Part shown: one piece after another, positions 168 to 40,769 of the stretch
Numbering within the stretch: the first letter of the stretch is position 1
Layout of the letters: each line of letters opens with the position of its first letter
Source: an uncultured Smithella sp.
Lineage (GTDB): Bacteria; Desulfobacterota; Syntrophia; Syntrophales; Smithellaceae
Direction: 5' to 3'
DNA: 64,000 nucleotides
Assembly: GCA_964491435.1 (NCBI GenBank)
Contig: CAZBGE010000003.1
Span: 3,644 to 67,643, forward strand
Position numbers and translations under genes: made by a program
The notes under the pieces: generated by a model
Told to the model about the DNA's origin: nothing
The model's database searches: none
Seen by the model: the letters and a program-made list of their open reading frames with translations, nothing else

Positions 168-2602
<2,435 letters not shown>

Positions 2603-11895: not shown

Positions 11896-11918
11896 CGAGA
11901 TGGATACGGGAGGTGGCG

Positions 11919-13856: not shown

Positions 13857-13858
13857 TC

Positions 13859-23139: not shown

Positions 23140-23442
23140 TTATTGAGCCATAATTGAGAAGATGGTGTCGAGTTTTAATTCCCTGAATAATCTCAAAATA
23201 TCCGGTTGCAGATTGGTTACGGACATGGTTCCGCCGTGAACGGCCAGGTTCTTATAAAACAGCAGTAATTTGCCGATGCCGGAACTGCCGATGTATCCAA
23301 CGTTCCGGAAATCGATTTCAACCTTTTTCAGCTGGCTCAGCTCGGAGAGTTTCGCCTTTAACAGCTCGGCTCCTTTTTCATCAATATCGCCAATAATCTC
23401 AAGGCGTCCCCGGTCGTCTTCCTGCGTTATCTTAAAGTCCAT
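23140..23442 (-). CDS. STAS-domain anti-sigma-factor antagonist (canonical phosphorylatable Ser motif)
   Basis: 100 aa. The motif DFRNVGYIGSSGIGKLL matches the SpoIIAA/RsbV DSSGLG-type phospho-serine loop. Confidence 0.85.
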   Translation of the reverse strand: MDFKITQEDDRGRLEIIGDIDEKGAELLKAKLSELSQLKKVEIDFRNVGYIGSSGIGKLLLFYKNLAVHGGTMSVTNLQPDILRLFRELKLDTIFSIMAQ

Positions 23443-23539
23443 GTCTATATCTCCTTTGCCTCAATTGTTAATTTGCCTGTTCCATTTTGCCGTAAGGGAT
23501 AATCATCCGCCGTTTCAGGGGGGTCAAATCCGCGTCGCC

Positions 23540-26500
23540 TCAATCTGTGATAAACCGCCGCCACAGGTCGAATCCTGAAAAAGACCTCATTTCGCGTTTT
23601 TTGCTGTCCTCTCTTGAAAAGTAAGCGATCAAATGCCGGCCGTCATCCGTCCATTGCGTCTCTTCCGTCCAATAACGCATGATAAAGATGCCGCGGCCGA
23701 CAGGTTTTAATAAGTTTTCCCGGCAGGTCGGATCATAAAACGTTTTATAGTCAAAACCGTTGCCCTCATCAATGACTTCCAGAACTGCGTCGTTTCCATA
23801 ACGCCGGCGGACGACAATCATTTTACGAGGATCTTTCCCGTTGCCGTGACTCCAGGCATTCATCATGGCTTCATCCAGAACCATGCGCAATCTGGTTTGC
23901 GGTGAGGGAAAACCACTGCTTTCCCATTCCTCGCTGATCTTGTAAAACAGGTGATTGACGCAAGCATCCAGGTCTTCCAGGTTTTTCGGGCGGACAATGT
24001 CTTCATACTCATGGCCCGCATCTTCCAGCTCCAGGCCCATCAGGGTGATGTCGTCATAAAAACTCCTGGGAATCACCACGCTGTCTCCCTCCCTCCCGTT
24101 GATGCGGTTGAACAGCCGCGCCATGAGGATGGAAACGGGAAGATGAGGTTCGTTTTGGACAATGGATAAAATCAAGTCTTTCACGTTTTGCGCGCTCAAG
24201 ACCGGCTTGCCGGACATATGCGGCATGTCCGTGAGCCCGTCCGTGAAAAAAATCAGCTTGTCGCCTTGCTGAAGCTGAATTTCTTCGCTTCTGAAATCCA
24301 GACTCCGCTCAATCCCCACGGGAAGGTTTCTGCCCTGGCCGTCGATGGACGGGAGGCAAACGATCTCTTGTTCCCGAATCAGCAGGAAGGGGGGGTGTCC
24401 CGCTGAAACATAGCGCATTCTCAGGTTATCATGATTAATCTCGGCGTCCACCGAGGTAAAAAAATTATCATCGCCGAAAAAACGCAGTTCGCAGATTTCG
24501 TGATTGAGACGGCTGATGGTCTCTTCCACCGGCAACGACGGCGTGTGGAGCAGAAGGGCGTTATGGATCAGATCGGTGATGATGCTCCGGAGAATGCAGC
24601 TGACCTCGTGTCCCGACTGATCCTTCAGGCTGACCGCCGTTTTGTGGATGGCGGGATATTGTTCCGAAAGATTTTTGACGAAAAAATGATCGCCGCCCTC
24701 GGCGTAACAGGGCAGGTAGCAGGCGGTAAAAAAGAGGCCTGTATCGCCTGGAAGAAGCGTGTGGCGGTTCGGACGGTAATTGATCATGGACAGGATGTTT
24801 TTGGCCAGATCGATATTCATTTCCTGTTTCAGAAACAACTCTTTCAAGTTGTTGTTGGCGGCGGTCAACTCGTAAGTCCTTTCGGCGACCCGCTGTTCCA
24901 GTTCGGCATGCGCCCTTTGCAGAGCCTCCCGGGTCCGGCGGCGCTCAGTGATGTCGCGGCTCACCGTGAGAATGCCGACCGGTTCGTTTTGGCGGTTGCG
25001 CAACGCGGAAATGCTGCTTTCCAGCCAGACCGTTGAGCCGTCTTTTTTGTATTCCTCAACCTCCAAAACGCGGATGCGGCCGGGATCGGCGGCGCCAGAT
25101 GCTTCCAGTTTCATCTCTTTGTCGAAAACCTCAAGCAGGACTTCCATGGATGCGGGAGTCATGAAACGGTCCAGGGGAGTTTGCATGGCCTCCTCAACAG
25201 TGTATCCGTGGGTTCGCGCAATGGACGGACTGATGTAGGTAAACCGTAAATGCAAATCCGTGACCGTAATGAGCTCTCCGGTATTTTCCGCAATCAGACG
25301 GTATTTTTCTTCACTTTGGCGCAGCGCCTCCTCCACCTGCTTTCGCTGAGTGATGTCGGTGTCGCTGCCGCGGTAGCCCAGGAGGTTTCCGTTGATGTCC
25401 AGTACGGGCAGGCAATTTGTGGAGAGCCATACGGGACGGCCGTCTTTGGTTAAGGCGGGGTTCTCCAGATTTACGAATGCTTCCTGGCGCTGGAAGCCCT
25501 CTAATACAGCTGTTTTGAAAGCCTCTCGTCCGTTTTCGGGATGCAGATCGTAAAAGTGCATCCGGCCCGTCAGTTCGTCCGGATGGTAGCCCAGAACTTT
25601 TGTGGAAACCTCGCTGACATAGGTGTAAAGGCCCTGGGCGTTTACTTCCCAGACGATGGTGCCGCTCTGTTTGGCCATCTGGTCGAAGCGCGCCTCGCTT
25701 TTCCGCAGCGCTTTCTCCACATGCTTGCGCAGGGTAATATCCCTGGAGACGCCGGACAATCCGGTCAACACGCCTTGAGCATTGCGTATTCCGGTGACGA
25801 CTGTCTCCATCCAGCGGGTTGAACCTTGCTTGTGATAATATTCCAGCTCAATGGTGACTGACCGGCGGGGATCGCCAAGCCCCTGCCTTTCCATTTCCAG
25901 CTCCATTGCCAGCTCCTTCGCCAGGGTTTCGTAAACATGGGACAGCGACGCGGGCGTCAATTGTTGTTCAAGGGGCTGGCGCATTCGTTCCTCCGGAGTA
26001 AATCCGAGCACGGTTTGAATGGAGGGGCTGACATATTGTTCCTTCAGATTCATATCCGCTGTCCAGACAATGTCGGATATTCTTTCCGTCAGCAGCCGGA
26101 ATTTGTTTTCGCTTTCCCGGAGCTCATTCTCCATGCGCTTGCGATCGGAAATGTCAATAAAACTTTCCAGATAGCAGTTCCGTCCCTTGATGGCGAGCGG
26201 ATGAACGGTTTTCAAAATATCTTTCTGCAATCCTCCGGCGCAGAGGAGGATTCGTTCCGATTGATCGATAATCTGGCCCAGATCTTTTACGGGGCAGCGG
26301 CCCCTTTCGGCGGGACAAACCAGCGTATGACAGATCTGTCCGATCATTTTCTCCCTGGAGGATCCGATCATTTCGGCCGCGCGGTTATTGGCATCCACAA
26401 TGGTTTGCGATGCGGCGTCAATGATCATGATTCCCGTGTCAATTTGGTTGAAAATGGCCTGCAATTTGGATTCGCTGTCCCGCAATTCCTCCTGCGCCCG

Positions 26501-28201
26501 CTTTTGTCCGGTGATGTCTCTGGAGACGCCGTGAATTCCGGTCAGAACGCCCTGATCGTCGCGCAAGCCGCTGATGGTGGTTTCCATCCAGCGTGTTGAT
26601 CCATCCTTATGATAATATTCCAGTTCTAGGATGGCCACTCTTCCGGGATCAGCATTTCCCTGTTTTTCAATTTCCATTTCCCGCTCCAGCGCCTTCAGTC
26701 CGTAAGCAAGCGAATCCGGGGGAAACTGCTGTTCAATGGATTGCCGCATCCTTTCTTCCTGCGTGAAGCCCAAAATGGTCTGGACGGACGGCGTGACGTA
26801 AACCGTCTGCAAATTCATGTCTGCAATCCAGACAATGTCCGACATTTTTTCTGTAATGAGCCGGTATTGCCTCTCACTTTGCCGCAGCGCCTCCTCCATC
26901 TGCCGGCGTTTGGTCGTATCCCGGGAGATGCCCAGTATCCCGGCGGGAACGCCCTGCTGGTTCCGAAGCAGCGTAAAAACCGTATCGGCCCAGAAAAAGG
27001 AGCCGTCTTTGCGGTAAAATTCCAGCTCCGCCTTGACCGAGATTTCTTCCCGGCTATTTTCCAGCTTTTCCGGAGCGAGATATTGATGGACCAGGCTGAT
27101 GGCCGTTGCGAGCGATGACGGCGTAAACTGCTTTTCCAGGGGCAGTTTTCTAAGTTCATCCAGGCTGTAACCGCGCGCTTGTTCGACGGACGGAGAGATC
27201 CAGGTAATCCGCAGATTCATATCCATGAGCCAGACCGTGTCTTGAATGTGATCCGTGATCAGCCGGAATCGCTTCTCATTTTGCCTGATGATTTCCTCGG
27301 TCCGCATGCGTTCGGTGATGTCCCGGCAAACGTGGACGATGCCAAAGGCGGTGCCGTCTTCGTTACGCAGGATATCGCTGTTCACTTCAAAGAATCCTTC
27401 CCTGCCGTTTTTCATGATCAGCCGGTATTCCTGCGGACCGATTTTCTGCTTCATCATGCGAGCCGTGTTTTGCAACACCCTTTTCCGGTCCTGGGGAGCG
27501 ACCAGCATAATCGCGTTTTGGCCTTCAATTTCATCAAGGCTGTAACCGCTGCTTTGCAGGCCGTATTCATTCACGAAGATGATGTTGCCCGCCAGGTCGG
27601 TGCGCCCGACCAGATCAGGTATGGCGTTGACCAGCCTGTTATAAATTTCCTCGCTTTTTCTCAGGGCGCTTTGCGCGTCTTTCCGATCCGTAATATTGCG
27701 AATGATGATAATGACCTGGTCTTCCAGAAGGGGGATGAATCTGGCTTCATAGAAAATTTCAGTTTCGTGACGCGGCAGATAATATTCAAAACTTGCTGAG
27801 GTGTTTGTGTTTTTGACGTCCTCGATGGCTTTCCGGAATTTATCGGCGGCGGGGACCAGAGGAATATCATATATTTTCCCCCCGAGGATGTCCCGGCGGG
27901 AAACGGGCAGATCGGAAATATGGCCCGTTTTACAGTCCAGGATTGTCCCGGCCTGGTCGATTCTGAAGAAAATATCGGGAACAGCCTCAAAGATGGCCCT
28001 CATTTCCGAATTGGCCTGCAACAGCTCCTGAGAGCTCAATTCCAGTGAACGCTCCAGCATGTTCCGGTCCATGTCCGATTCATGATAGGCGTTGTTGACC
28101 ATATCGATAAAACCGCGCCATTCATCCGGCGCTTCAAACGAATCTCCGAAGAAACTTTTCAGCTGACGCTTCAGAAGACTGTGCATTTTTCCCGATGTCA
28201 T
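23540..28201 (-). CDS. Multi-PAS sensor fused to a PP2C (SpoIIE-type) phosphatase and an RsbW-like HATPase serine kinase
   Basis: 1553 aa.
- About nine PAS/PAC units, each ending in an (S)RDIT.. motif.
- A coiled coil.
- A PP2C domain at about 24026-24820 (GGDHFF, SGH, SAGHPP, FTDGLTD, DDITLM).
- A GHKL ATPase domain at about 23609-23980 (LDEAMMNAWSHGN, VIDEGNGFD, GRGIFIM). Confidence 0.9.
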   Translation of the reverse strand: MTSGKMHSLLKRQLKSFFGDSFEAPDEWRGFIDMVNNAYHESDMDRNMLERSLELSSQELLQANSEMRAIFEAVPDIFFRIDQAGTILDCKTGHISDLPVSRRDILGGKIYDIPLVPAADKFRKAIEDVKNTNTSASFEYYLPRHETEIFYEARFIPLLEDQVIIIIRNITDRKDAQSALRKSEEIYNRLVNAIPDLVGRTDLAGNIIFVNEYGLQSSGYSLDEIEGQNAIMLVAPQDRKRVLQNTARMMKQKIGPQEYRLIMKNGREGFFEVNSDILRNEDGTAFGIVHVCRDITERMRTEEIIRQNEKRFRLITDHIQDTVWLMDMNLRITWISPSVEQARGYSLDELRKLPLEKQFTPSSLATAISLVHQYLAPEKLENSREEISVKAELEFYRKDGSFFWADTVFTLLRNQQGVPAGILGISRDTTKRRQMEEALRQSERQYRLITEKMSDIVWIADMNLQTVYVTPSVQTILGFTQEERMRQSIEQQFPPDSLAYGLKALEREMEIEKQGNADPGRVAILELEYYHKDGSTRWMETTISGLRDDQGVLTGIHGVSRDITGQKRAQEELRDSESKLQAIFNQIDTGIMIIDAASQTIVDANNRAAEMIGSSREKMIGQICHTLVCPAERGRCPVKDLGQIIDQSERILLCAGGLQKDILKTVHPLAIKGRNCYLESFIDISDRKRMENELRESENKFRLLTERISDIVWTADMNLKEQYVSPSIQTVLGFTPEERMRQPLEQQLTPASLSHVYETLAKELAMELEMERQGLGDPRRSVTIELEYYHKQGSTRWMETVVTGIRNAQGVLTGLSGVSRDITLRKHVEKALRKSEARFDQMAKQSGTIVWEVNAQGLYTYVSEVSTKVLGYHPDELTGRMHFYDLHPENGREAFKTAVLEGFQRQEAFVNLENPALTKDGRPVWLSTNCLPVLDINGNLLGYRGSDTDITQRKQVEEALRQSEEKYRLIAENTGELITVTDLHLRFTYISPSIARTHGYTVEEAMQTPLDRFMTPASMEVLLEVFDKEMKLEASGAADPGRIRVLEVEEYKKDGSTVWLESSISALRNRQNEPVGILTVSRDITERRRTREALQRAHAELEQRVAERTYELTAANNNLKELFLKQEMNIDLAKNILSMINYRPNRHTLLPGDTGLFFTACYLPCYAEGGDHFFVKNLSEQYPAIHKTAVSLKDQSGHEVSCILRSIITDLIHNALLLHTPSLPVEETISRLNHEICELRFFGDDNFFTSVDAEINHDNLRMRYVSAGHPPFLLIREQEIVCLPSIDGQGRNLPVGIERSLDFRSEEIQLQQGDKLIFFTDGLTDMPHMSGKPVLSAQNVKDLILSIVQNEPHLPVSILMARLFNRINGREGDSVVIPRSFYDDITLMGLELEDAGHEYEDIVRPKNLEDLDACVNHLFYKISEEWESSGFPSPQTRLRMVLDEAMMNAWSHGNGKDPRKMIVVRRRYGNDAVLEVIDEGNGFDYKTFYDPTCRENLLKPVGRGIFIMRYWTEETQWTDDGRHLIAYFSREDSKKREMRSFSGFDLWRRFITD

Positions 28202-28207: not shown

Positions 28208-29347
28208 CTAATCCTCGGCCAGTGTTGTGATGGTCATGGTCTGGTTATGGAGCGTACTGGGATCGTCCGCCGTAAATGGAGAAATTTCTCCATAGGAATA
28301 AAATCCCGCAAGTTTCGGAGCGCACCGGAAGACATCGTTGGCGGCTTCCACTTCTTCCTCGATTCTTTGTTTCAGCACAAGCTTGCGGCCGACGCAGCTG
28401 ATGAGGATGGCCAGTTCGGGAGAGCTTCCCCGGAGCCCCTCGAGGCTTCTGACGGCCGCTCCGCTGGCCCCGTCAATGAGCCGTTCGAAGTTGGCTTTCA
28501 TGAAACGGGCGTAAGCCCCCTGGGGGACATCACCGGCGAAAGTCATGCTGCTGTCTTCTTCGTTTACGGACAGGATGGTTCTCACGATGCCCTTTTCGCC
28601 GCTTCTGGCGCGGATGCTCAAAGGAAAAAGCAGGCCGGCGGCGGGGAGCCCCTTGGCGTATTCACCCAGATACTTCTTGTACAGGCTCAATGCCGTCTGT
28701 CCGTCCAATTCATAGAGGATGTTTTCTTTTGACTTGGTAATGATCCGGTCCGGGCCGAAGGGATCCCACCCTCCCATGGAGCCATAGCCGATCTTCAGGT
28801 TTTTTCCATATAAGCCCACAATCGCCAGGGTGTTTTTTGACGGAGGATTGTCCCAGAAAACATAGGTTTCCGTAAAATGAGAGCCATTGCCTGCCAGGCC
28901 GCCGGTAATGGGCACTCCTGCGGGAAGGGCGCCGGACAGGCCTTTGACCAGTTCGCTTCCGTTGACGCCCAAGCCGTCGGACAGGACGAACACATGGCGC
29001 AGGCCTTTATTTTCGATGGATTGCGCCAGCATCCGGCCTGCGTCAAAACTGCCGGAAGTCTTTTTCAGGGCAAGCTCGGCCCCCATGAATTCCGTTTTTT
29101 CGAAATGGATCGCCGTGGCGACCAGAGAATCATCCGAAACACGGGTGCCGCATATCTCACCGGCCGTGGAACAGCCGAAAAAATGCGCTCCCGGATACAT
29201 TTTTTTCACCTCTGCAAAAAAGATTTGATCTTTTAAAATTTCCGTTGCGGCGAAAATAATGACCAGCTGAATTTTCTTTTCCATGGCAGGTCCGTTTTGC
29301 AGAGACCAGCCCTTTGCTTTGGTCCATATCCTTTGTTCGATTTTCAT
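28208..29347 (-). CDS. Stand-alone FIST (FIST_N + FIST_C) sensory-domain protein
   Basis: 379 aa with no TM helix and no output domain (FFGCSTAGEI, VLSDGLGVNGSELV, GFYSYGEISP). Its start overlaps the upstream kinase stop by 4 nt. Its stop lies 6 nt before the PAS-PP2C start. Confidence 0.83.
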   Translation of the reverse strand: MKIEQRIWTKAKGWSLQNGPAMEKKIQLVIIFAATEILKDQIFFAEVKKMYPGAHFFGCSTAGEICGTRVSDDSLVATAIHFEKTEFMGAELALKKTSGSFDAGRMLAQSIENKGLRHVFVLSDGLGVNGSELVKGLSGALPAGVPITGGLAGNGSHFTETYVFWDNPPSKNTLAIVGLYGKNLKIGYGSMGGWDPFGPDRIITKSKENILYELDGQTALSLYKKYLGEYAKGLPAAGLLFPLSIRARSGEKGIVRTILSVNEEDSSMTFAGDVPQGAYARFMKANFERLIDGASGAAVRSLEGLRGSSPELAILISCVGRKLVLKQRIEEEVEAANDVFRCAPKLAGFYSYGEISPFTADDPSTLHNQTMTITTLAED

Positions 29348-32079
29348 TGATAATTCTCCCGGTTGGCCGATGATTCTTCCTCACTCCGGCATTGCCTCAT
29401 GTTTTCTTCCAGAACCCTTCGGATCAGCCGGGTAAATTCGTTCATGATAATGGGTTTTAAGACGTATTCCCGGACGCCGATGACTTTGGCCTGCTCCGGC
29501 GAAACAGTGGCGCTGAAACCAGTGCATAAAATAATGGGGAGTTCCGGCCGGATCCGCAGCATGGTTTTAGCCAGGTCCGCTCCGGTCAGATAAGGCATCG
29601 TCTGATCGGTGATGACCAGATCATAAGCAAAAGGATCGGCTTGAAAAAGCTGCAGCGCTTCCAGAGAACTGTTCCGGGCCGTCATTTTGTATCCGAGGCG
29701 GGACAGGGACTTGGACATCATCTCCACCATGAAATCCTGATCGTCAATCAGGAGAATCCGTTCCGTGCCTCCGACGGCGGGAACAACCTTCGCCTCCTGA
29801 AGTTGCGCGCTCTGTTGCGCCAGCATGGGCAAATAAATAAAAAAGACGGTTCCTTTGCCGACTGTGCTTTCCAGACAAATATGCCCTCCGTAGCTTTTCA
29901 CAATGCCATGGACGACGGCCAGGCCCATGCCCGTTCCTTCTCCTGTTTTTTTCGTCGTGAAGAAAGGATCGAATATTTGGCTCTGAATTTTTTCATTGAT
30001 GCCGTGCCCGTCGTCAGCCACTTGAAGTTCCAGGTAGTCGCCCGCGTTTAAATGCTCACGCAGAGATGGATGTTCCTCAGAGATCGCCATTTGCTTGAGC
30101 CCGATGGTTAACGTGCCGCCTTTCTCGCTCATGGCGTGCGCGGCATTGGTGCATAAATTCAGCAATACTTGATGCACCTGAGTCGCATCCGCCAGAATGA
30201 ATGCGTCATGGACCTGGATGTTTTGCCTGATGAAGATGGTGGAAGGCAGCATGGCGCGCAGCAGCTTGATGATTTCCTTAATCACGGGGGCGATCATTAA
30301 AGGCTTCCTGGCTGTCGCGTCGCGGCGGCTGAAAGCCAGAATCTGCGCAACCAGATTTTTGGCCCGGTCGCTGGCGCGGAAGATCTCGTCGATACATTCG
30401 CCCGCAGGGCTTTCCGCCGGCAATTCTTCCAGGGCCATGCCCGCATAACCGATGATGGCGCCTAAAATATTGTTGAAATCATGGGCGATTCCTCCGGCCA
30501 GGGTTCCAATGGCTTCCATCTTCTGGGCCTGGATCAATTGCGCTTCCATTTTCTTGCGCTCGGTGATGTCGTTAAATAAAATGGCGAATTGTCCCTTTTG
30601 CGGACAAAACGCATGAATCTGATAATGGCGCTCCGATTCTTTGACATAATTTTCAAAAGAAAGGGGTTCCCCGGTTAAGGCGACCTTTCCATAGATGGCG
30701 ATGTTGCCGGTTTCCGAAGGAGGCAAGACCTGCCGGCAGCATTTGCCGATGACTTGCGCGGCCTTCAGATTGGTTATGGTCTCGAATGCCGGATTGATAT
30801 CCAGAAAACGGTAGTCAACGGGATCGCCGTGATGATCGCAAATGATTTCATGAAGCGCAAAGCCTTCCAGCATTTCCGTAAACAGGGAGCGATACTTCTG
30901 CTCGCTTTCCCGCAACTTGTCTTCGGCTTGTTTGTATCCGGTGATGTCATAGCTGATGCCGATCATATGCAAGGGAGCGCCGTTGGCGTCTCTGGTTACT
31001 TTGCCGTAAGAACGGATGTGTTTCAGGGTTCCGTCAGGATGGATGACCCGGAAAGCGGTATGATAGTTTTTGTCGCCCCTCAGCGCTTGCTGAATTTCAG
31101 CTTCGTTCGAGGCAGCGTCATCCGGGTGGAGACTGTTTCGCCAGGCCTCCTGCATGTCAACAATATTTTCCTTGTTCATGCCGTGGAGTTCATACATCCG
31201 GTCATTCCACACCACATGATTATTCCGCAGATCTTTGTCCCACACGCCCAGATTCGCCGCTTTGGTGGCCAGATCAAGTCTTTCCAATAAATTTTTCTTT
31301 GCTTCCGCCTCCTTTTTGCGCTCGGTGATGTTGCGGGCGATAAATAAGACGCCGGCCGGTTTTCCGTTTTCCTGAAATAATTGCGAAAGAATATCCAGGA
31401 TGACTCTCTGGCCTTTTGCGTCAACGATTTCCCATTCATAGGCGGAAATGCCGGCATAGCCGTCCATCCTCCTTTGCATCATGGCTTGCTGCATCTCCAG
31501 AAGTTCCGGGGGGGTAAAGGCGGTGATGCTCATTCCGGTGGGGTCAACATCTCCCAGCAAGTCCCGGACCGCTTTGTTGACGTAAGTGATCTTCCAGCTG
31601 AAATCAGAAGTAATAATAAGATCTTGTATCGTTTCCGTAATCAGGCGGTAGTTTTCCCAGCTTTTGTGCCATTCCCGTTCGATGCGTTTGAGCGCATTGC
31701 GCACCCTGGCTTCGGTCAATTCTCTGTTAATGGCCGGGAGCAGACGGTGCAGATTTTCCTTCCGGATGTAATCGCGCGCTCCCAGACGCATGCATTCCAC
31801 GGCCGCTTCTTCATCAATGACGCCGGAGACAATGATCAGGGGAATATCCAGATCCTCTTCCGTTAACAGATTGATCGCGTCATGCACATTGAATCCGGGC
31901 AGATTGTAGTCGCACAAAATGACATCCCACTGTTTTCCGTCAAGCGCCTTGCGCATGGTTTTGGCCGTTTCGACCCGTAAAAAGTCGGGATCGTAACCGC
32001 CCTTTTTCAGGGCGCGCGCAATGAGCGAAACATCATCTTTATTATCTTCGATAATCAGAACCCGCAGGGGTGTCAGCAT
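29344..32079 (-). CDS. Hybrid sensor histidine kinase (REC-PAS x3-HisKA-HATPase-REC)
   Basis: 911 aa.
- N-terminal canonical receiver (VLIIEDNKDD...ILCDYNLPG...DYIRK).
- H-box GIAHDFNNILGAI.
- G-boxes DDGHGI and GTGMGLAV.
- C-terminal receiver (ILLIDDQ...VITDQTMP). Confidence 0.9.
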   Translation of the reverse strand: MLTPLRVLIIEDNKDDVSLIARALKKGGYDPDFLRVETAKTMRKALDGKQWDVILCDYNLPGFNVHDAINLLTEEDLDIPLIIVSGVIDEEAAVECMRLGARDYIRKENLHRLLPAINRELTEARVRNALKRIEREWHKSWENYRLITETIQDLIITSDFSWKITYVNKAVRDLLGDVDPTGMSITAFTPPELLEMQQAMMQRRMDGYAGISAYEWEIVDAKGQRVILDILSQLFQENGKPAGVLFIARNITERKKEAEAKKNLLERLDLATKAANLGVWDKDLRNNHVVWNDRMYELHGMNKENIVDMQEAWRNSLHPDDAASNEAEIQQALRGDKNYHTAFRVIHPDGTLKHIRSYGKVTRDANGAPLHMIGISYDITGYKQAEDKLRESEQKYRSLFTEMLEGFALHEIICDHHGDPVDYRFLDINPAFETITNLKAAQVIGKCCRQVLPPSETGNIAIYGKVALTGEPLSFENYVKESERHYQIHAFCPQKGQFAILFNDITERKKMEAQLIQAQKMEAIGTLAGGIAHDFNNILGAIIGYAGMALEELPAESPAGECIDEIFRASDRAKNLVAQILAFSRRDATARKPLMIAPVIKEIIKLLRAMLPSTIFIRQNIQVHDAFILADATQVHQVLLNLCTNAAHAMSEKGGTLTIGLKQMAISEEHPSLREHLNAGDYLELQVADDGHGINEKIQSQIFDPFFTTKKTGEGTGMGLAVVHGIVKSYGGHICLESTVGKGTVFFIYLPMLAQQSAQLQEAKVVPAVGGTERILLIDDQDFMVEMMSKSLSRLGYKMTARNSSLEALQLFQADPFAYDLVITDQTMPYLTGADLAKTMLRIRPELPIILCTGFSATVSPEQAKVIGVREYVLKPIIMNEFTRLIRRVLEENMRQCRSEEESSANRENYQ

Positions 32080-32098: not shown

Positions 32099-32497
32099 TT
32101 AAGTGATTAATCCAAAAGATCTCAAATAGTCCAATAATTTTGATTTATTCACCGGTTTTACCAGATATGCGTCGCAGAGGGATTTAAAAGCGCCGATGAC
32201 GTTTTTGGGATCGCCCAGGGCCGTTGTCATAATGATTTTCACGCCGGCGCTGGAATTGATTCCCATTTCTTCCTCCAGAGAGCGTATTTTTTTGAGCGCT
32301 TCCATGCCGTCCACCTCCGGCATCATTACATCCAGGCATATGAGCTGATAGGGTTTTCCTTCTTCGAGGGCAAGGGCGAAAGCATCTATGGCTTCCTTTC
32401 CGTTGACGGCGATGTGGCATTCGCCGTATGCGGATAAAATGGTCTGCAGCAACAACCGGCTGGTGAAATCATCCTCTACAATCAGTATTTTCATCAT
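32099..32497 (-). CDS. Single-domain CheY-like response regulator
   Basis: 132 aa (KILIVEDD...LICLDVMMPEVDG...YLVKP). Its start overlaps the 3' end of the upstream hybrid kinase by 29 nt. Confidence 0.9.
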   Translation of the reverse strand: MMKILIVEDDFTSRLLLQTILSAYGECHIAVNGKEAIDAFALALEEGKPYQLICLDVMMPEVDGMEALKKIRSLEEEMGINSSAGVKIIMTTALGDPKNVIGAFKSLCDAYLVKPVNKSKLLDYLRSFGLIT

Positions 32498-35294
32498 GAT
32501 GCCTCCCTTTCTTATGATATTGTTTTAGCCAGGGTGATTTTTCTATTACTCTTTTATACATTTCCAATTGTTTTTCAAGCTGTGGAAAAAGCCCTGCGGC
32601 TTTCGCGAGCGCTTTTTTTCCGCCCGCTTCTTCCATCCGCTCCGCCGCCTTCCGCAGGGAAGCCGCTCCGGCGTTTGCCGCGGCTCCCTTGATGGCATGG
32701 GCTTGCCTTTTTACCCCGGTGATATCGTTTTTTTCAAGATAAGTTCTCAGCGTGCAGAACTGCGCGGGCATGTCCTTCAAAAATGCGTCAATGATGACGC
32801 CCGCCAGCCGCCCGTCATTCATCAACCGCTCAATCATGTCCTGTTCGTCAAAAATAATCCGCCGGGCGTCCGGAACTTTATTCGGCAAGCCGGGGCGGAA
32901 CCGGTCTGCATTTTTTTCTTCAGCTCCCTTTGCCTGATTCAGCCACCGGGAGAGGGTTTTGGTCAGCGTTTGCAGTTGCAGGGGTTTGGCCAGGTAATCG
33001 TTCATCCCCGCCTCCAGATATCCTCGCCGGCCGTTGACCGGCGCGCGAGCCGTGACGGCGATGATGGGGATGTCCGGATTCAGGGCGCCTGTTTCCCGCC
33101 TGCGGATGAGACGAGTGAGATCGCAGCCGTCCATTTCGGGCATTTGGCAATCCATCAGCACCGCATCATACTGAATTGTCCGCAGCGCGTCAATCGCCGT
33201 GACGCCGTCGGACGCAATATCGGCCAGGCAGCCGAGTTTTTTCAGTAAAGCCAGCATGACGGTTTGACTGGTTGCGTTGTCTTCGACTACCAGAATTTTT
33301 CTTTCCGTTATATGCGCATGTGGCGCGGCGGCGCCTTGTTCCGCGGCGGTTTTGCCGCTGTTTCCCCGGCGCATGGCCGCGGCGATGGCGTCATGAAGAC
33401 ACGCGCGCCGGATCGGTTTGGTGCAGTATCCGTCGAAGCCGGTTTGCGCGAAGCGTGATGCGTCGCTCCCTTTGCCCAGAACAGCCATCGCAATCAGGCG
33501 GGTTTGGCTGAGCGTCTGGTCTTCCCTGATCCGGCGGCACAGGGTTTCCTCATCCATGTCCGGCATCCCCGCATCCAGAAGAGCAATCTGAAAAGGGTCC
33601 TTGTCCCGCAGCGCCTTGCGCAGGGCGGCCAGGGCGGAAGCCCCGTCCGGGACGGAAACAGCGCGGCATTGCCATTTTTGCAGCAGTGCGGCCGCCGCCA
33701 TCCGGCTGTCGGCGTGCTCATCGGCCACCAGAACTTTGATGCCGCTCAGATCCGCCGGCTCGTCCGTTGCCGTGTCCGTCTCCCGGGGCTGATTTTCAAA
33801 AACGGCGGTAAACCAGAAAGAGGAACCTTCGCCGATTTCACTTTCACAGCCGGCCCGGCCGTTCATTAATTCCGCCAGCCGCCGGGTAATGGCCAGGCCA
33901 AGTCCCGATCCCCCGTATTTGCGCGTGGTGGAACTGTCCACCTGTACAAAAGGCGAAAAAAGAGCGCCTTGCCGATCCCGTGGAATGCCGATTCCCGTAT
34001 CGGATACCGTAAAACGCAGTGTCACGGAAGGCGCGTTTTCACAGATTTTGGAGACCCTGATCATGACCCGGCCTTTTGGCGTGAATTTTACGGCATTGCC
34101 GGTCAGGTTGAGCAGGGCCTGACGCAGGCGTCCGGGATCGCCCCTGAGCTGCGCCGGCACGTCTGGTTCCATAAAAGCCGTGATTTCCAAATCTTTATTC
34201 TGGGCGCAGACGGCGGTCATTTCGGCGATATCCTCCAGGGTGTTTTGCAGATTGAAGTTCAACTTTTCCAGAGCCATTTTTTGCGCGTCCATTTTGGACA
34301 GGTCAAGAATATCATTAAGCAGGCCCAGCAGGGAAATGCCGCACTGCTGGATAATTTCGGCGAACCGCCTCTGTTCGCCGGTCAGTCTGGTATCCAGAAG
34401 CAGGTCTCCCATGCCGATAATGCCGTTCATGGGCGTGCGGATTTCATGGCTCATATTGGCGAGAAATTCGCTTTTTGCGGCGTTGGCGGCTTCGGCGGCG
34501 ATTTTCGCTTTCTGCAAATCATGCCGGGCCTGCGTCAGTTCGGTTATGTCGCGGGCCACAAACATCACGCCGGCCGGCTTCCCGTCTTCGGTGAGCAGCT
34601 GCGACCGCGCATCCATAATCAATGGCCGGCCGTTGATGTCCGGCAGGCGCCATTCAAACGGCAGAACTTCGCTGAAACCATCCCGTCTTTTTTGCATCAT
34701 TTCCATCTGCGAGGGGTGCATCGCGGCGGGTGTGAAGTCGGTCAGCTTTCGCCCGATCGGTTCTGCACCGCCCAGTAGTGCTCGCGCCGCTTTATTGACA
34801 TATCTGATCTCAAAATCCAGATTGGTGATCAAAATCAGATCCGGGGTGGTTTCGGCGATCAGGCGGTATTTTTCCCAGCTTCTTCCCCATTCCAGCTCCA
34901 CCTGCCTGAGAGCATGCCTGATTTTGGCTTCCGCCAGCTCCCTTTCAATGGCCGGCTTCAGCCCTGCCTCGTCATCCTTCAGGATGTAATCACGGGCGCC
35001 CTGACGCATGCATTCCACAATTGTTTCCCGGCTGGCCTTTCCGTCGATGATGAGCAGGGGAATATCGAGATGTTTTTCCTTGAGCAATTTGAGGATGGCC
35101 AATACGTTCGCGGCGGGCAGGTCCTTGCACAAAATAATGTCCCAGGAATTGTTTCCGAGGGCGTCGCCCAGGGCTTCGGGAGTATTTACCCGCAAGCAAC
35201 CGGGACGGTATCCTCCGTCCGCCAGCAGATTCAAGAGCGGTGGAAGGCCTTTTGCCGCCCCGGCCGCAATCAGGACGCGCGGAATATTTTCCAT
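32469..35294 (-). CDS. Hybrid sensor histidine kinase with degenerate N-terminal receiver (pseudo-REC-PAS-HisKA-HATPase-REC-REC-Hpt)
   Basis: - H-box MSHEIRTPMNGIIGM and G-boxes DTGIGI and GSGLGLAI.
- Two receivers (VLVADEH...ALLDAGMPDM; ILVVEDN...VLMDCQMPEMDG).
- Hpt histidine at QAHAIKGAAANAG (about 32686-32707).
- I set the start at ATG 35294 (MENIPRV, GGTGGAG RBS). The in-frame extension to 35663 overlaps the real receiver gene 35311-35682. Confidence 0.88.
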   Translation of the reverse strand: MENIPRVLIAAGAAKGLPPLLNLLADGGYRPGCLRVNTPEALGDALGNNSWDIILCKDLPAANVLAILKLLKEKHLDIPLLIIDGKASRETIVECMRQGARDYILKDDEAGLKPAIERELAEAKIRHALRQVELEWGRSWEKYRLIAETTPDLILITNLDFEIRYVNKAARALLGGAEPIGRKLTDFTPAAMHPSQMEMMQKRRDGFSEVLPFEWRLPDINGRPLIMDARSQLLTEDGKPAGVMFVARDITELTQARHDLQKAKIAAEAANAAKSEFLANMSHEIRTPMNGIIGMGDLLLDTRLTGEQRRFAEIIQQCGISLLGLLNDILDLSKMDAQKMALEKLNFNLQNTLEDIAEMTAVCAQNKDLEITAFMEPDVPAQLRGDPGRLRQALLNLTGNAVKFTPKGRVMIRVSKICENAPSVTLRFTVSDTGIGIPRDRQGALFSPFVQVDSSTTRKYGGSGLGLAITRRLAELMNGRAGCESEIGEGSSFWFTAVFENQPRETDTATDEPADLSGIKVLVADEHADSRMAAAALLQKWQCRAVSVPDGASALAALRKALRDKDPFQIALLDAGMPDMDEETLCRRIREDQTLSQTRLIAMAVLGKGSDASRFAQTGFDGYCTKPIRRACLHDAIAAAMRRGNSGKTAAEQGAAAPHAHITERKILVVEDNATSQTVMLALLKKLGCLADIASDGVTAIDALRTIQYDAVLMDCQMPEMDGCDLTRLIRRRETGALNPDIPIIAVTARAPVNGRRGYLEAGMNDYLAKPLQLQTLTKTLSRWLNQAKGAEEKNADRFRPGLPNKVPDARRIIFDEQDMIERLMNDGRLAGVIIDAFLKDMPAQFCTLRTYLEKNDITGVKRQAHAIKGAAANAGAASLRKAAERMEEAGGKKALAKAAGLFPQLEKQLEMYKRVIEKSPWLKQYHKKGRHHDENTDCRG

Positions 35295-35310
35295 CTTTTC
35301 TCCACCCGTA

Positions 35311-35682
35311 TCATTCCGCAAGCAGCTCTTTGACCGCCGCGAGAATTTCACTGTGTGTAAACGGTTTGACCAATGTTTTCTGTGCTCCCAGGTTTCCGGC
35401 CAATTCCAAATAATACTCTCCGGAATTGAGCTGGCCGCCGCCGGAGATGGCGATAATCCTTGTCGCCGGATATTTCTTGTGGAATTCCATAATGGTTTCA
35501 ATTCCTTCCTTTTCGGGCATGACCAGGTCCGTGACGATGAGATCGAATGGACCTTCTTCCTGACGCCGGACAGCCTCTTTGCCGTTTTCAGCGACGGACA
35601 CGTCAAATCCGTTGGCGGTAAAGAGCTTCCGCAGCATGGCTCTGATAGCGTCGTCGTCGTCAATGACCAAAATGCGTTTCAT
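35311..35682 (-). CDS. Single-domain CheY-like response regulator
   Basis: 123 aa (ILVIDDDD...LIVTDLVMPEKEG...TLVKP). It sits 16 nt downstream of cheB and 16 nt upstream of the hybrid kinase. Confidence 0.9.
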   Translation of the reverse strand: MKRILVIDDDDAIRAMLRKLFTANGFDVSVAENGKEAVRRQEEGPFDLIVTDLVMPEKEGIETIMEFHKKYPATRIIAISGGGQLNSGEYYLELAGNLGAQKTLVKPFTHSEILAAVKELLAE

Positions 35683-35698: not shown

Positions 35699-36775
35699 TT
35701 ATGATTCCCTGCATTGCCGCAGCACTTTGTCGGGAATGTTTTCCAGAGGTTGTATTGTTTTCACCGCTCCCAGTTTGACGGCCTCCTGCGGCATGCCGTA
35801 AACGACGCAGGTAGCCTCATCCTGTGCAATAGTGTAAGCGCCGGATTCTTTCATTTCCAGCATGCCTTTGGCTCCGTCATCGCCCATGCCGGTCATGATG
35901 ACGCCGACGGCATTTGGCCCGGCGTAACGGGCGGCGGAGCGGAACAAAACGTCCACGGAGGGACGATGCCGGGAGATCAGGGGGCCGGATTTGATCTCCA
36001 CGTAATAGCGGGCGCCGCTGCGCTTGAGCAGCATGTGATAGTTGCCGGGAGCAATCAGCGCCCGTCCCGTAATGACGGTGTCGTCATCCGAGGCCTCCTT
36101 CACGGAGACGCGGCAAATCGAATCAAGTCTGGCGGCGAACGACTTGGTGAAGTTTTCGGGCATGTGTTGCACAATGACGATGCCGGGGGCGTCCAGCGGC
36201 ATTTTTTCCAGGAAAATGCGGATGGCCTCGGTGCCGCCCGTCGATGCGCCGACCACGATTACTTTTTCCGTTGTTTCTATCATGGCGTTTGTTTTAGGTT
36301 TTGGCATCATCGCGTCCGCCGTGAGCTTCGGCTCAATGTGGGGGCGCGCCGAAAGGCGCCGGAGCTTTGCCTGTACCGCCGCCTTGACGGAGTCGCAGAT
36401 GCGGATTTTCGACTCTTCCAGAAATTGCCGGGAGCCCAGCTTTGGTTTCTGGATGATATCCACCGCCCCGTATTCAAGCGCTTTAAGAGCGGAGCCGGAA
36501 TTTTCTTCCGTCAGTGATGAGCAGATGACGACCGGAAGAGGATGCTGAGTCATGATTTTCTGCAAAAAAGTAATTCCGTCCATCCGCGGCATTTCCACAT
36601 CAAGCATAATGACATCGGGCGCTTGTTCCCTCATCCGCTGAGCGGCAATGAGCGGATCCGCTGCTGCCGCCATGACTTCAAGATCCGGATCGGAATTGAA
36701 GATTTCCGTCAAGGCTTGCCGTACCACGGCGGAGTCGTCAACGATCAGAATGCGGATTTTCTTTTTTTGCGCCAT
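35699..36775 (-). CDS. cheB: Chemotaxis response regulator protein-glutamate methylesterase
   Basis: REC domain ([13 protein letters not shown]...[12 protein letters not shown]) plus methylesterase domain (GASTGG, IVQHMP, GMGDDGA). I chose the start at ATG 36775 (MAQKKK), which has an AAGGAAA RBS. Confidence 0.92.
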
Positions 36776-36832
36776 GAGGATTTCCTTTTGCCGTCTTTTT
36801 GGTTTCCGGAACATGAGCGGGGTGGCTCATGC

Positions 36833-37348
36833 TTATTGCCTCAGCACGACAATTCCTGTTTTCGTATTGAAGCTGATTTTCCGCCCTGCCGTTCCGCCGA
36901 CGTCGCAGCAGTGAATGGTGAAGCCGTGATCCGCGATGACTTTTTTGGCCGCGATCAAATTTTGCAGTCCGACGGGCTTTATGCCTGCGGACTGCTTTGG
37001 CGAGGCGATCATCTTCGCGCCGCCGAAAAGCTGGACTTGTGTTTCCGATGCGGCGATGCCGGAGCGGGAAAACGCTTCGATCATCATGGAAACGGAGCAG
37101 TCCACGTACCTGTATGCTTCCGGGCACTTTGCGCAGTCTTCGTTCAAAAGATCCCCGGCGTAATTTTTATAGACATGCCGTTTACAATGCGGCAGGAGCG
37201 CATGGCTGATGGCCGCCATCCCCAGTCGCTTGTTGAAGAGCGTCACCGCAATGCACGAACCGAGAATCGTGGTGATGATGGCCGGCCTTTCGATGATGGA
37301 TATTTCTCCCGGCTTCAGATACAAATGAACGTTCCCTGTTTTATTCAT
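36833..37348 (-). CDS. cheD: Chemoreceptor glutamine deamidase
   Basis: LKPGEISIIERPAIITTILGSCIAVTLF...HALLP is the CheD signature. The start at ATG 37348 overlaps the cheR stop by 8 nt. Confidence 0.88.
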   Translation of the reverse strand: MNKTGNVHLYLKPGEISIIERPAIITTILGSCIAVTLFNKRLGMAAISHALLPHCKRHVYKNYAGDLLNEDCAKCPEAYRYVDCSVSMMIEAFSRSGIAASETQVQLFGGAKMIASPKQSAGIKPVGLQNLIAAKKVIADHGFTIHCCDVGGTAGRKISFNTKTGIVVLRQ

Positions 37349-38213: not shown

Positions 38214-38225
38214 ACACTCACTGTG

Positions 38226-38720
38226 TCATGCGGCTTCGGTTTTTAATGCGTTTGCGGCCGTCATCTCTTCCAGCGAAAAGACCTTATCGATATCCAGAAT
38301 GATGACAAACGAATCATCGCGTTTCCCCATGCCCAGGATAAAGTCCGTGTTCAGTTTTGCGCCGATTCTGGGCGCCGGCTCAATCTGGGATGGTTCCAGT
38401 TCAAACACTTCCTGAACGGAATCCACCAGCGCGCCGAGGATGGTTGGTTCGTTGTCAATGGCTATTTCCACGACGATGATGCAGGTGTCGACGGTGCGTT
38501 CCTGCGTTAACATATTGAACTTCTGGCGCATATCGACAACCGGCACGACCGCTCCCCGGAGGTTGATGACGCCCTTCATGAATTCCGGCGTCTGCGGCAC
38601 TTTGGTGATAGCCGTATAGTCCAGTATTTCCCGGACCTTACCCACGTCCAGGGCGAATATTTCCTCGTCCAGTTTAAAAGTCAGATAAGGTCGAATTTCC
38701 GTTATTTTGGATATTGCCAT
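38226..38720 (-). CDS. cheW: Chemotaxis coupling protein
   Basis: 164 aa, CheW-like domain (YLTFKLDEEIFALDVGKVREIL, GVINLRGAVVPVVDMR). Confidence 0.92.
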   Translation of the reverse strand: MAISKITEIRPYLTFKLDEEIFALDVGKVREILDYTAITKVPQTPEFMKGVINLRGAVVPVVDMRQKFNMLTQERTVDTCIIVVEIAIDNEPTILGALVDSVQEVFELEPSQIEPAPRIGAKLNTDFILGMGKRDDSFVIILDIDKVFSLEEMTAANALKTEAA

Positions 38721-38807
38721 GGTCTAGTTCTCCCTTCCGGCCATTTTGGTGACATTCCGATTCAAAATTTCCTCATGAAAAAGGCGTCCGTCTGGAATCC
38801 GCGTTTG

Positions 38808-40652: not shown

Positions 40653-40769
40653 ATTTTAAGGCTCCTTTATTTTATTTGGCCATGTTGGATCAATATGGCC
40701 ATTTGCGTTCATCCGGCATTTTCATGTTTCCGCGAATCGGGAGATGCTTCCCGTGTAAAAAAGCGCTTT

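Follow-up and report, generated by a model that had tools for sequence, protein, structure and literature searches.

The window analysed in this work, i.e., the whole 64-kb stretch of DNA, harbors on its minus strand an intact open reading frame (23540..28201) encoding a protein of 1553 aa, in which a leader of 65 residues is followed by eight PAS domains, a helical linker, a PP2C/SpoIIE serine phosphatase domain and an RsbW-type GHKL serine kinase domain. A separate gene located 97 bp downstream on the same strand (23140..23442) codes for a STAS protein of 100 aa (PF01740, E 1.1e-11; TIGR00377, E 4e-14), the presumed substrate and switch of the system. Immediately upstream lies a gene (28208..29347, minus strand) for a stand-alone FIST_N+FIST_C protein of 379 aa (PF08495, E 3e-49; PF10442, E 7e-36); the junction sequence places its stop codon 6 nt ahead of the start codon of the 1553-aa ORF. 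The FIST gene had been overlooked in the original prediction made on this DNA.

Further upstream, and always on the minus strand, Pfam assigned a hybrid histidine kinase with the organization REC-PAS x3-HisKA-HATPase_c-REC (29344..32079), a single-domain response regulator (32099..32497), a second hybrid histidine kinase with at least two REC domains and a C-terminal Hpt (32469..35663), and a Che gene set (35699..43219) separated by short gaps and comprising CheB (35699-36814), CheD (36833-37384), CheR (37341-38213), CheW (38226-38720), a sCache-HAMP chemoreceptor (38808-40652), CheA (40770-42854) and CheY (42854-43219). The chemoreceptor resembles the Cache-type receptors flanking other members of the PP2C-kinase family. 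The synteny with the locus L009 spans all six genes, with identities of 60-82%; those of the first hybrid kinase, the response regulator and the HK-Hpt are 63%, 82% (the highest of the block) and 60%, respectively. The tight FIST-PP2C-kinase gene pair recurs in L001, L008, L009 and L088, and the STAS protein shares 74-78% identity with its counterparts in L001, L008 and L009, which are FIST-linked, and also in L007. In L001, relatives of the first hybrid kinase (58% identical) are located downstream of the STAS gene.

The phosphatase domain (aa 1187-1390; 24032..24643, minus strand) matches PF07228 with an E-value of 4.4e-21 and 76 bits (cutoff 25), covering profile positions 4-189 of 192, and the anti-sigma-type kinase domain of the RsbW/SpoIIAB type (aa 1429-1525; 23627..23917, minus strand) matches HATPase_c_2 (PF13581) with an E-value of 4.3e-13 and 49.8 bits against a cutoff of 27.4. 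The metal-binding aspartates of the former are D1171 (GGDH), just upstream of the Pfam envelope, D1194 (KDQSGH), D1321 (TDG) and D1383/D1384 (DDIT). The latter exhibits a complete N box (E1444/N1448/H1452/G1453) as well as the G1 (D1478-G1480-G1482) and G2 (G1502-G1504) boxes; the motifs ExxxNAxxHG, DxGxGF and GxG are conserved in the alignment with RsbW and SpoIIAB (profile alignment, 6m36, E 1.6e-7, and 1l0o, E 3.3e-7, respectively). All these residues are invariant in 36 homologues sharing 37-72% identity (two alignments). This invariance, in turn, suggests that selection acts on catalysis, and the motifs predict both a kinase and a phosphatase activity, with the STAS protein as their likely substrate. 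The AlphaFold2 model of the last 438 residues (pLDDT 88.4, pTM 0.88) retrieved with Foldseek, as the top PDB match, the structure 3KE6 ("RsbU and RsbW domains of Rv1364c"; E 1e-18, 386-393 aligned columns); the fold matches of the PP2C domain include RssB, SpoIIE and RsbX.

Concerning the STAS protein, its GSSGIG motif contains Ser53, which in the alignment occupies the position of the phospho-serine in the DS[ST]GLG motif of SpoIIAA, RsbV and TM1442, with a glycine in place of the aspartate preceding the serine; Ser53 is thus the predicted phospho-acceptor. The original prediction had proposed that the two opposing activities of a partner switch, a SpoIIE/PP2C domain and then a GHKL kinase, are fused at the C-terminus behind a PAS array and next to a canonical GSSGIG STAS protein. 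Pfam detected all three domains, no more than about 60 aa away from the approximate boundaries proposed for the two catalytic ones, and the search for degenerate residues found the PP2C aspartates and the three kinase boxes intact, so that the fusion is well supported at the sequence level.

The design of this C-terminal module is already known. A single matched stretch covering both domains (E<=1e-30) was retrieved from 148 cluster representatives, which form a small family composed mostly of REC-PP2C-kinase proteins built like CrsR and HsbR; a REC domain is fused in 33 family loci. The closest relatives outside the clade are REC-PP2C-HATPase_c_2 proteins as well, with 38-47% identity, in agreement with the proposal of CrsR/CrsA as the nearest analogue. 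PAS-PP2C-anti-sigma-kinase fusions have also been described, e.g., Rv1364c (PMC12143880), and family members with long PAS arrays, up to 1723 aa, occur in at least 21 species genomes. A STAS gene is adjacent or fused in 43 of the 49 fully flanked family loci (the fused form being found in 10 family loci), and a chemoreceptor gene lies within 1.5 kb in 45 of these 49, which answers the suggestion to survey the PAS(n)-SpoIIE-HATPase_c_2 architecture and its Che linkage.

The input region is organized differently. Pfam PAS_9 identified eight stretches (E 1.6e-86) between aa 66 and 1087 (24941..28006, minus strand), and a separate manual delimitation of the units gave the same number. PAS3, 4, 6 and 8 are internal duplicates (pairwise identity 33-62%), and PAS5 carries the motif CHTLVCPAERGRCP. 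Pfam revealed no Response_reg (REC) domain in the protein, nor is any other known phospho-acceptor present. The syntenic orthologue from L009 lacks PAS5 and PAS7, and in the L001 relative the input is reduced to the leader and PAS1 plus about one further unit; hence, across the orthologues, the leader with PAS1 and the linker-PP2C-kinase portion are kept, and the inner PAS units are gained and lost. The linker that connects PAS8 to the phosphatase (aa 1088-1186; 24644..24940, minus strand) also contributes the N-terminal strands to the PP2C fold, shares 63-79% identity with Smithellaceae relatives and contains a helix at residues 2-25 of the modelled fragment (aa 1117-1140). For PPM phosphatases, a coiled-coil linker mechanism under the control of PAS, REC and GAF inputs has been described (PMC12143880).

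The leader (aa 1-65; 28007..28201, minus strand) does not match any Pfam or NCBIfam model, and it is conserved across the FIST-linked proteins, with the consensus mHsLLkRQLkr..F..avn.AY...D.DR.MLERSLeLSSqELLqaN (79 sequences) and an identity of 37-90% (median 62%) among ORFs downstream of FIST genes. In 76 of 78 loci, the ORF directly following the FIST gene has this leader at its N-terminus, irrespective of its output domain, and PAS1 co-travels with the leader. Among the 85 PP2C-kinase loci, only three, all of them FIST-linked, possess it. The value of the N-terminal 65-185 residues as a hallmark of FIST-partnered transducers had escaped the original prediction. In the 64 metagenome FIST loci with downstream room, the following ORF is a histidine kinase in 34 cases and a PP2C-kinase in one. 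On the basis of this gene neighbourhood, we propose that FIST docks on the leader, and the leader-FIST association represents the best clue to the actual input of the 1553-aa protein. Since the leader and PAS1 are typical of proteins encoded downstream of FIST genes, the protein would be a chimera of a FIST-partner input and a partner-switch output, and this FIST-to-PP2C-kinase connection appears to be a new wiring. The paralogues of L006 and L007 have neither FIST nor leader, and their C-terminal module is equally similar (74%); therefore, the output module works with other inputs too. A tentative extension, to which we assign somewhat less than even odds, is that FIST and the leader of about 65 aa (with PAS1) represent a portable docking cassette, normally found on histidine kinases and grafted in one clade of Smithellaceae onto a PP2C/anti-sigma-kinase switch. 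If so, a NosP-like FIST sensor would set STAS phosphorylation directly, without a His-Asp relay.

The FIST protein itself seems to be only a distant relative of NosP: the NCBIfam model NF041558 matches it over the full length with an E-value of 1.8e-21, and the score (76.6 bits) is far below the equivalog cutoff of 450, so that a role in heme or NO sensing should not be taken for granted. No solved FIST structure was found through a sequence search.

The interpretation that best explains these data as a whole, with a probability of roughly 0.7, is that the 1553-aa protein acts on the STAS protein encoded downstream as a bifunctional regulator with a dual FIST/PAS input. The GHKL domain would phosphorylate Ser53 using ATP, and the PP2C domain, dependent on Mn/Mg, would strip the phosphate; the N-terminal input would set the balance of these activities via the long helical linker, as in the RsbU/RsbP-type PPM phosphatases. 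Two kinds of input are most likely combined: FIST, co-translated with the 1553-aa protein, may dock on the module formed by the leader and PAS1, and the other, evolutionarily labile PAS domains may supply further cues. The phosphorylation state would decide between kinase-bound and free STAS, and the output would pass through the binding of either STAS or the kinase domain to a partner encoded elsewhere, candidates being a sigma or anti-sigma factor, a c-di-GMP enzyme and the chemosensory machinery. The protein would thus join a FIST-partnered N-terminus, which normally drives a histidine kinase, to a CrsR/HsbR-like output, collapsing a relay of the NosP-NahK-HptB-HsbR-HsbA type into a direct link, and the flanking hybrid kinases, Hpt and response regulator would represent a conserved companion phosphorelay.

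The comparison with CrsR/CrsA and HsbR/HsbA, based on architectures reported in the literature, reveals the same PP2C domain followed by an anti-sigma-type GHKL kinase in one polypeptide, an adjacent and separate STAS gene, and links to chemosensory genes and hybrid HK/Hpt phosphorelays (e.g., HptB-HsbR). The described targets are RpoS for CrsR and FlgM, HsbD and RpoS for HsbA/HsbR. CrsR and HsbR possess a REC domain, whereas the 1553-aa protein has the 65-aa leader and the eight PAS domains instead (the replacement of the receiver by PAS domains had been noticed in the original prediction); moreover, unlike them, it has a FIST gene coupled directly upstream. On the other hand, the embedding among Che genes does not set it apart from CrsR, since crsR and crsA themselves lie inside the Shewanella che1 locus, adjoining an MCP (PMC9855816). 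Hence, within that earlier interpretation, the fusion, the motifs, the STAS protein, the lack of a local sigma factor (see below) and the CrsR analogy stand, whereas the Che contrast and the count of about nine PAS domains have to be abandoned, and the FIST partner was missing from it.

The NosP-NahK(NosK)-HptB pathway of Pseudomonas aeruginosa, Burkholderia pseudomallei and, as VpsV/VpsS, Vibrio offers a parallel for the input. NosP binds and controls its co-cistronic kinase (PMC12570481), and the signal proceeds from NahK to HptB, HsbR and HsbA (PMC11784011; bioRxiv 10.1101/2025.09.24.678285), so that in Pseudomonas it terminates in the HsbR/HsbA partner switch. In both cases, a stand-alone FIST gene lies directly upstream of a cytoplasmic multi-PAS transducer that its product presumably controls, and the "near_NosP" kinase model (near_NosP_CTERM, NCBIfam NF041832) gives a weak match to the HK-Hpt of the window (168 bits, under the cutoff of 400). 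However, the FIST partner is a histidine kinase in that pathway and carries the PP2C-kinase output here, the FIST score remains at 76.6 versus 450 bits, and no match was obtained between the leader and the NahK model of Pseudomonas.

Rv1364c of Mycobacterium tuberculosis (PAS-PP2C-RsbW-RsbV) is the best PDB match by sequence (family profile, E 3e-11) as well as by fold, with an identity of about 18-19%; it has one PAS domain and a STAS domain in the same chain, whereas in our case PAS, PP2C and kinase are fused and STAS is separate, and it belongs to the actinobacterial SigF network, without any FIST or Che context. SypE of Vibrio fischeri likewise combines an RsbW-like kinase and a PP2C domain acting on a STAS protein (SypA), but with a kinase-REC-PP2C order, a REC input and a polysaccharide locus. 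The Bacillus subtilis RsbP/RsbQ pair shares the PAS-linked PPM phosphatase, the helical linker and a separately encoded partner docking on PAS and linker (PMC12143880), and RsbW-RsbV the same STAS phospho-serine chemistry; in contrast, RsbP and RsbW are separate proteins, SigB is encoded in the same operon and the partner is an alpha/beta hydrolase rather than a FIST protein.

As regards the output, STAS itself may be the effector, as in the HsbA/SypA/BtrV model, although we consider this less likely than not. The kinase domain would then be only a kinase, and free STAS, in either phosphorylation state, would have a target other than a sigma factor, for instance an anti-sigma factor, a diguanylate cyclase or the chemoreceptor array. 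Unphosphorylated HsbA binds FlgM, and its phosphorylated form binds HsbD and HsbR (PMC6482189; bioRxiv 10.1101/2025.09.24.678285). SypA acts on a non-sigma target (PMC8256260), and no known sigma factor has been assigned as the output of either SypA or the STAS protein of the window. The MCP, PP2C-kinase and STAS genes occur together in nearly all of the family loci, including those of PAS-type members without REC, and the operon of the window contains a Cache-type MCP and the full Che set. The client of the switch could be the chemoreceptor machinery, a companion of this family at nearly every locus, and not a sigma factor. Nevertheless, gene adjacency is no demonstration of a physical interaction, the neighbouring MCPs show no extra domain or tail marking them as targets, and neither a FlgM nor a GGDEF gene adjoins the module in the window.

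A CrsR-type anti-sigma switch, in which the GHKL domain sequesters a distant sigma factor (RpoS-like or of group 2-3) until dephosphorylated STAS displaces it, looks rather unlikely; if real, it would place a stress regulon under the PAS/FIST input. The kinase domain aligns with RsbW and SpoIIAB, the D3 domains of CrsR and HsbR bind RpoS without any linkage to the rpoS gene (PMC6482189), and the organism has sigma-dependent regulators, e.g., the sigma-54 activator encoded at 44791-46290. Yet, in agreement with the original prediction, no sigma-70-family ORF was detected in the window by Pfam (nearly all ORFs >=120 aa) or by probing all its ORFs with RpoS in phmmer, and the RpoS query did not retrieve any sigma-factor gene near the 85 family loci; ECF sigmas might escape the RpoS query. 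Furthermore, the constant neighbour of the family is a chemoreceptor and not a sigma factor, and a sigma-binding surface cannot be judged from sequence.

As to the input, we regard as improbable the hypothesis that the Che/phosphorelay genes provide it in place of FIST, with the response regulator (32099-32497) or the Hpt/REC domains of the hybrid kinases acting in trans as a substitute for the fused REC of CrsR/HsbR, and FIST regulating only the neighbouring hybrid kinase. HptB phosphorylates HsbR in Pseudomonas (PMC6482189), most family members have a fused REC, and the block of HK-Hpt, response regulator and hybrid kinase is syntenic with the module in L009, the response regulator being its most conserved product; the distant locus L085 also has HK-Hpt and response regulator genes after the PP2C-kinase. 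However, the 1553-aa protein has no site known to receive a phosphoryl group, L001 retains FIST-PP2C-kinase-STAS without the HK-Hpt and response regulator genes, and the stand-alone response regulator, with 32-35% identity, resembles the REC domains of the family no more than it does others. The leader and FIST co-occur strictly, which favors FIST over the phosphorelay as the input. Lastly, it is very improbable that one catalytic domain is a binding-only pseudo-enzyme and the protein not truly bifunctional, since, although the common GGDxxD motif is incomplete in the PP2C domain (GGDHFFV, without the second Asp), RssB is among the fold matches and Rv1364c-type and RssB-type relatives include inactive domains, that Asp is missing from SpoIIE too and the four metal-ligand positions and the kinase boxes do not vary across the homologues aligned.

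Two additional observations concern the locus as a whole. Other assemblies hold an identical copy of the 1553-aa protein. The head of the gene string (43285..44081, minus strand; Pfam, NCBIfam) consists of two ORFs, i.e., a STAS_2 protein (43285-43623) that lacks the DS[ST]G phospho-loop and a 153-aa ORF (43620-44081) that has no family match in either database and whose homologue in the locus L015 precedes a CheW-MCP-PP2C-kinase arrangement.

The analysis of the unbroken ORF located at 23540..28201 on the minus strand, coding for 1553 aa, revealed that the domain-level reading of the original prediction is correct, with one adjustment in the number of sensory units. An identical copy of the protein is on record on an NCBI contig (cluster look-up), and two further 1553-aa proteins with at least 90% identity come from independent read-archive assemblies. 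According to Pfam and to our own delimitation of the units, a leader of 65 aa is followed by eight PAS units, PAS1-PAS8 (aa 66-1087; eight stretches of PAS_9, E 1.6e-86), instead of the approximately nine claimed, and by a linker of about 100 aa; the complete SpoIIE/PP2C domain and the subsequent GHKL kinase domain were both found by Pfam, the former at aa 1187-1390 (E 4.4e-21, the profile being covered almost fully) and the latter, an RsbW-type HATPase_c_2, at aa 1429-1525 (E 4.3e-13). The same search did not retrieve any receiver domain from the protein. PAS3, PAS4, PAS6, and PAS8 are internal duplicates (33-62% identity).

The catalytic residues, whose degeneration had been considered as a possible objection, are intact. 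The four PPM metal-ligand positions (GGD1171H, KD1194QSGH, TD1321G, and D1383-D1384) are invariant in 36 aligned homologues sharing 37-72% identity, as are the N box (E1444xxxN1448AxxH1452G), the G1 box (D1478xGxGF), and the G2 box (G1502xG1504) of the kinase. In a PDB profile search, the profile of the whole module aligned with Rv1364c (3ke6, E 3.3e-11), and RsbW (6m36, E 1.6e-7) and SpoIIAB (1l0o, E 3.3e-7) matched the C-terminal portion of the profile; a trimmed alignment was used for this search, receiver-domain matches having dominated with the full-length homologue alignment. A confident AlphaFold2 model built for the C-terminal 438 aa (pLDDT 88.4, pTM 0.88) had its top PDB match in the RsbU-RsbW domain pair of Rv1364c (E 1e-18 over about 390 aligned columns), followed by the PP2C domains of RssB, SpoIIE, and RsbX. 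The model opens with a 24-residue helix extending the one that exits PAS8; such linkers transmit PAS, REC, and GAF inputs to PPM phosphatases (PMC12143880).

The predicted substrate is encoded 97 bp downstream (23140..23442, minus strand): this 100-aa STAS protein carries the GSSGIG loop initially described, and its Ser53 occupies the alignment position of the serine that is phosphorylated in TM1442, RsbV, and SpoIIAA.

The STAS gene closes a string of genes running from 44081 to 23140, all on the minus strand and separated by gaps of no more than 117 bp. In this order, Pfam assigns them to a 153-aa ORF and a STAS_2 protein lacking the phospho-loop; CheY, CheA, a Cache-HAMP chemoreceptor, CheW, CheR, CheD, and CheB; a hybrid histidine kinase with Hpt, a single-domain response regulator, and a second hybrid histidine kinase; and, lastly, the FIST, 1553-aa, and STAS proteins. 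The closest relatives of the PP2C-kinase module belong to Smithellaceae/Smithella MAGs (Syntrophales), with 71-74% identity.

The original prediction contrasted this arrangement with Shewanella CrsR, in that PAS domains replace the receiver and the module is embedded in a Che/phosphorelay operon; it also raised the matter of how often the architecture occurs and whether it is Che-linked. When 1.84 billion cluster representatives were scanned in full, 148 were retrieved at E<=1e-30, nearly all of which match PP2C and kinase in one stretch; many exceed 1000 aa, up to 1721 aa. In a word-indexed search, most matches showed the REC-(PAS)-SpoIIE-HATPase_c_2 architecture of CrsR/HsbR, the top three being PAS/GAF-SpoIIE-HATPase_c_2, and STAS was also fused in some. 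The gene neighbourhoods were then surveyed by scanning one genome per species (80 loci), annotated by phmmer with the window proteins as queries. The family loci, i.e., the relatives of window positions 23543-24856 (L001-L085), comprise 33 with a REC-type N-terminus, 21 of the PAS-array type, and 30 with another or undetected one. The PAS-array proteins, averaging 1227 aa with a maximum of 1723 aa, were found in Smithellaceae, Syntrophaceae, Opitutaceae, and other Verrucomicrobia; this form is recurrent, with dozens of genomes harboring it.

Among the 49 fully flanked loci, a STAS gene is adjacent or fused in 43 and a chemoreceptor gene lies within 1.5 kb in 45, while CheA is absent within 10 kb from all of them. 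The adjoining receptors are MCPs of the ordinary kind, most of which have a Cache sensor resembling that of the window operon, and the linkage with chemoreceptor and STAS genes is also present in PAS-type members without a receiver domain. Moreover, Shewanella crsR and crsA lie within the che1 locus, beside an MCP gene (PMC9855816). Hence, both features of the contrast with CrsR hold for the window, but neither the replacement of REC by PAS nor the Che/phosphorelay setting is unique; what is unusual is the complete Che set within the same gene string. More generally, the design class is already known from CrsR/HsbR, SypE, Rv1364c, and OsaC.

The new element is the predicted coupling of a FIST protein and a leader to a partner switch. 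The FIST gene ends 6 nt ahead of the 1553-aa ORF and codes for a stand-alone FIST_N+FIST_C protein. NosP-type FIST proteins are hemoprotein NO sensors that bind and control a histidine kinase encoded by an adjacent gene (PMC12570481), VpsV/VpsS being another FIST-histidine kinase pair. The window protein aligns end to end with the NCBIfam NosP model but reaches only 76.6 bits versus a cutoff of 450, and is best classified as a distant NosP relative, not an equivalog. No solved structure related to it by sequence was found, and a literature search for the NosP heme ligand gave nothing usable. A metagenome scan retrieved more than 587 FIST relatives with 55-74% identity; at the 64 loci with downstream room, the following gene codes for a histidine kinase in 34 cases, a truncated PAS protein in six, and a PP2C-kinase in one.

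In 76 of 78 loci, the product of the gene directly after FIST begins with the leader of about 65 aa (identity 37-90%, median 62%), irrespective of the output domain, which among these FIST loci (L086-L165) is mostly a histidine kinase. Its motif is HsLLkRQLk...F..avn.AY...D.DR.MLERSLeLSSqELLqaN (window 28007-28201, aa 1-65); PAS1, up to aa 185, is conserved alongside it, but less so. Leader plus PAS1 gave no Pfam or NCBIfam match beyond generic PAS, nor did they match the Pseudomonas NahK model. The leader occurs in just three of the 85 PP2C-kinase loci, namely those linked to FIST (L001, L008, and L009). The leader looks like an undescribed signature of FIST partners, and it represents a candidate FIST docking code.

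Within this FIST-linked clade, leader plus PAS1 and the linker-PP2C-kinase part are constant and the inner PAS units variable: PAS5 and PAS7 are missing from L009, and the array of L001 comprises only about two PAS units. The same Smithellaceae genomes also harbor paralogues without FIST or leader (L006 and L007), whose C-terminal modules are equally similar (74%). The distribution of the leader, together with this comparison of orthologues and paralogues, indicates that the 1553-aa protein is a recent chimera joining the input head of a FIST partner to a partner-switch output. Six genes are syntenic with locus L009 of a Smithellaceae MAG: the histidine kinase with Hpt (60% identity), the response regulator (82%), the hybrid histidine kinase (63%), FIST (70%), the PP2C-kinase (71%), and STAS (78%). 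L001 keeps FIST, PP2C-kinase, and STAS, with a relative of the hybrid kinase next in line, and harbors no Che genes within 10 kb. These layouts indicate that the phosphorelay accompanies the module in a conserved manner; the Che genes are dispensable.

PAS5 contains a Cys-rich motif, CHTLVCPAERGRCP, at aa 624-637 (window 26291-26332), which none of the eight close relatives inspected shares; a metal, Fe-S, or redox site, gained along with PAS5 and PAS7, is conceivable.

In principle, we can depict the following scenario, whose core, a bifunctional STAS kinase/phosphatase with FIST/PAS input, we hold with a probability of roughly 0.7. The GHKL domain would phosphorylate Ser53 of the STAS protein and the PP2C domain would remove the phosphate, the balance being set by the N-terminal region via the helical linker. 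The FIST protein would dock on leader plus PAS1 as a principal input, and we regard such direct coupling as fairly probable; the PAS units that come and go, among them PAS5 with CHTLVCPAERGRCP, may contribute further cues.

As for the output, free STAS might act on another client, as in the HsbA/SypA model, which we consider a tentative option; since a chemoreceptor neighbour is near-universal in the family, the chemosensory machinery is a candidate client of the switch. Alternatively, the kinase domain might hold a remote sigma factor, according to the CrsR model. This appears slightly less likely still: the absence of a local sigma factor gene, as predicted, was borne out in the window by Pfam on nearly all ORFs of at least 120 aa and by phmmer with an RpoS query, validated by a match elsewhere at 3.6e-60, and no such gene lies near any family locus. 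The window is bacterial: its Mfd, UvrA, SurA, LolA, and NtrC-type activator genes led us to reject an archaeal origin and, with it, a genome devoid of sigma factors.

In P. aeruginosa, NosP-NahK signals through HptB to the HsbR/HsbA partner switch (PMC11784011; bioRxiv 10.1101/2025.09.24.678285), HptB passing phosphate from hybrid kinases to HsbR (PMC6482189); the FIST-leader-partner switch reads as a short-circuit of that logic. Partner switches are widespread, as are FIST/NosP sensors, and signal entry into the former and partner recognition by the latter are poorly understood; the same putative FIST-recognition leader on a serine phosphatase/kinase in place of a histidine kinase represents a natural experiment. 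Should the leader be the docking site of FIST, the motif of about 65 aa would be a predictive marker of FIST-controlled proteins in metagenomes; it would also help to map where NosP contacts its kinase in pathogens, in which biofilm formation is governed by the NosP-NahK-HptB-HsbR-HsbA route. The family-wide triad of chemoreceptor, PP2C-kinase, and STAS, without CheA or sigma factor, poses the question of the regulated target.

No tRNA or Rfam features were found in the window. The sigma-54 promoter pattern gave 46 matches versus 73 expected by chance, none convincing upstream of the gene string, and scanning both of its ends for sigma-70 promoters and terminators gave no informative signal; the 710-bp gap at 44082-44790 contains no convincing match to either promoter type. 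The STAS_2 protein that begins the Che string (43285-43623, minus strand) was set aside as a second substrate, being without the phosphorylatable DS[ST]G loop. The preceding 153-aa ORF (43620-44081, minus strand) has no family match and a sequence pattern resembling a degenerate receiver; a homologue stands ahead of CheW-MCP-PP2C-kinase at another family locus (L015). Directly upstream of the string lies a response-regulator sigma-54 activator (44791-46290, minus strand), near a REC-HD-GYP-type (HD_5) response regulator (48471-49613, minus strand); a 627-aa ORF diverging from the activator gene (46583-48466, plus strand) gave only a sub-threshold MCPsignal match (27.4 bits versus a cutoff of 34.6) and may encode a chemoreceptor-like protein of degenerate or atypical form.

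A full-length NrpR-type regulator (1601-2602, minus strand; NRD1/2 domains, E 1.5e-81, plus HTH) adjoins a glutamate dehydrogenase gene (168-1586). The NrpR family is best known as a nitrogen repressor of methanogenic archaea; the bacterium bearing this regulator probably lives syntrophically with methanogens. Downstream of the PP2C-kinase locus of Desulfonema magnum (CP061800.1, 18960-20910), about 12 called ORFs of 38 aa, spaced by about 171 bp, suggest a tandem DNA repeat array. Lastly, the region 10765-14488 (plus strand) encodes an F420-hydrogenase/dehydrogenase beta-like Fe-S protein, followed by a 2-oxoacid:ferredoxin oxidoreductase-like gene pair (POR_N/TPP_enzyme_C/Fer4, then POR), and a similar POR pair occurs near another family member (L005).
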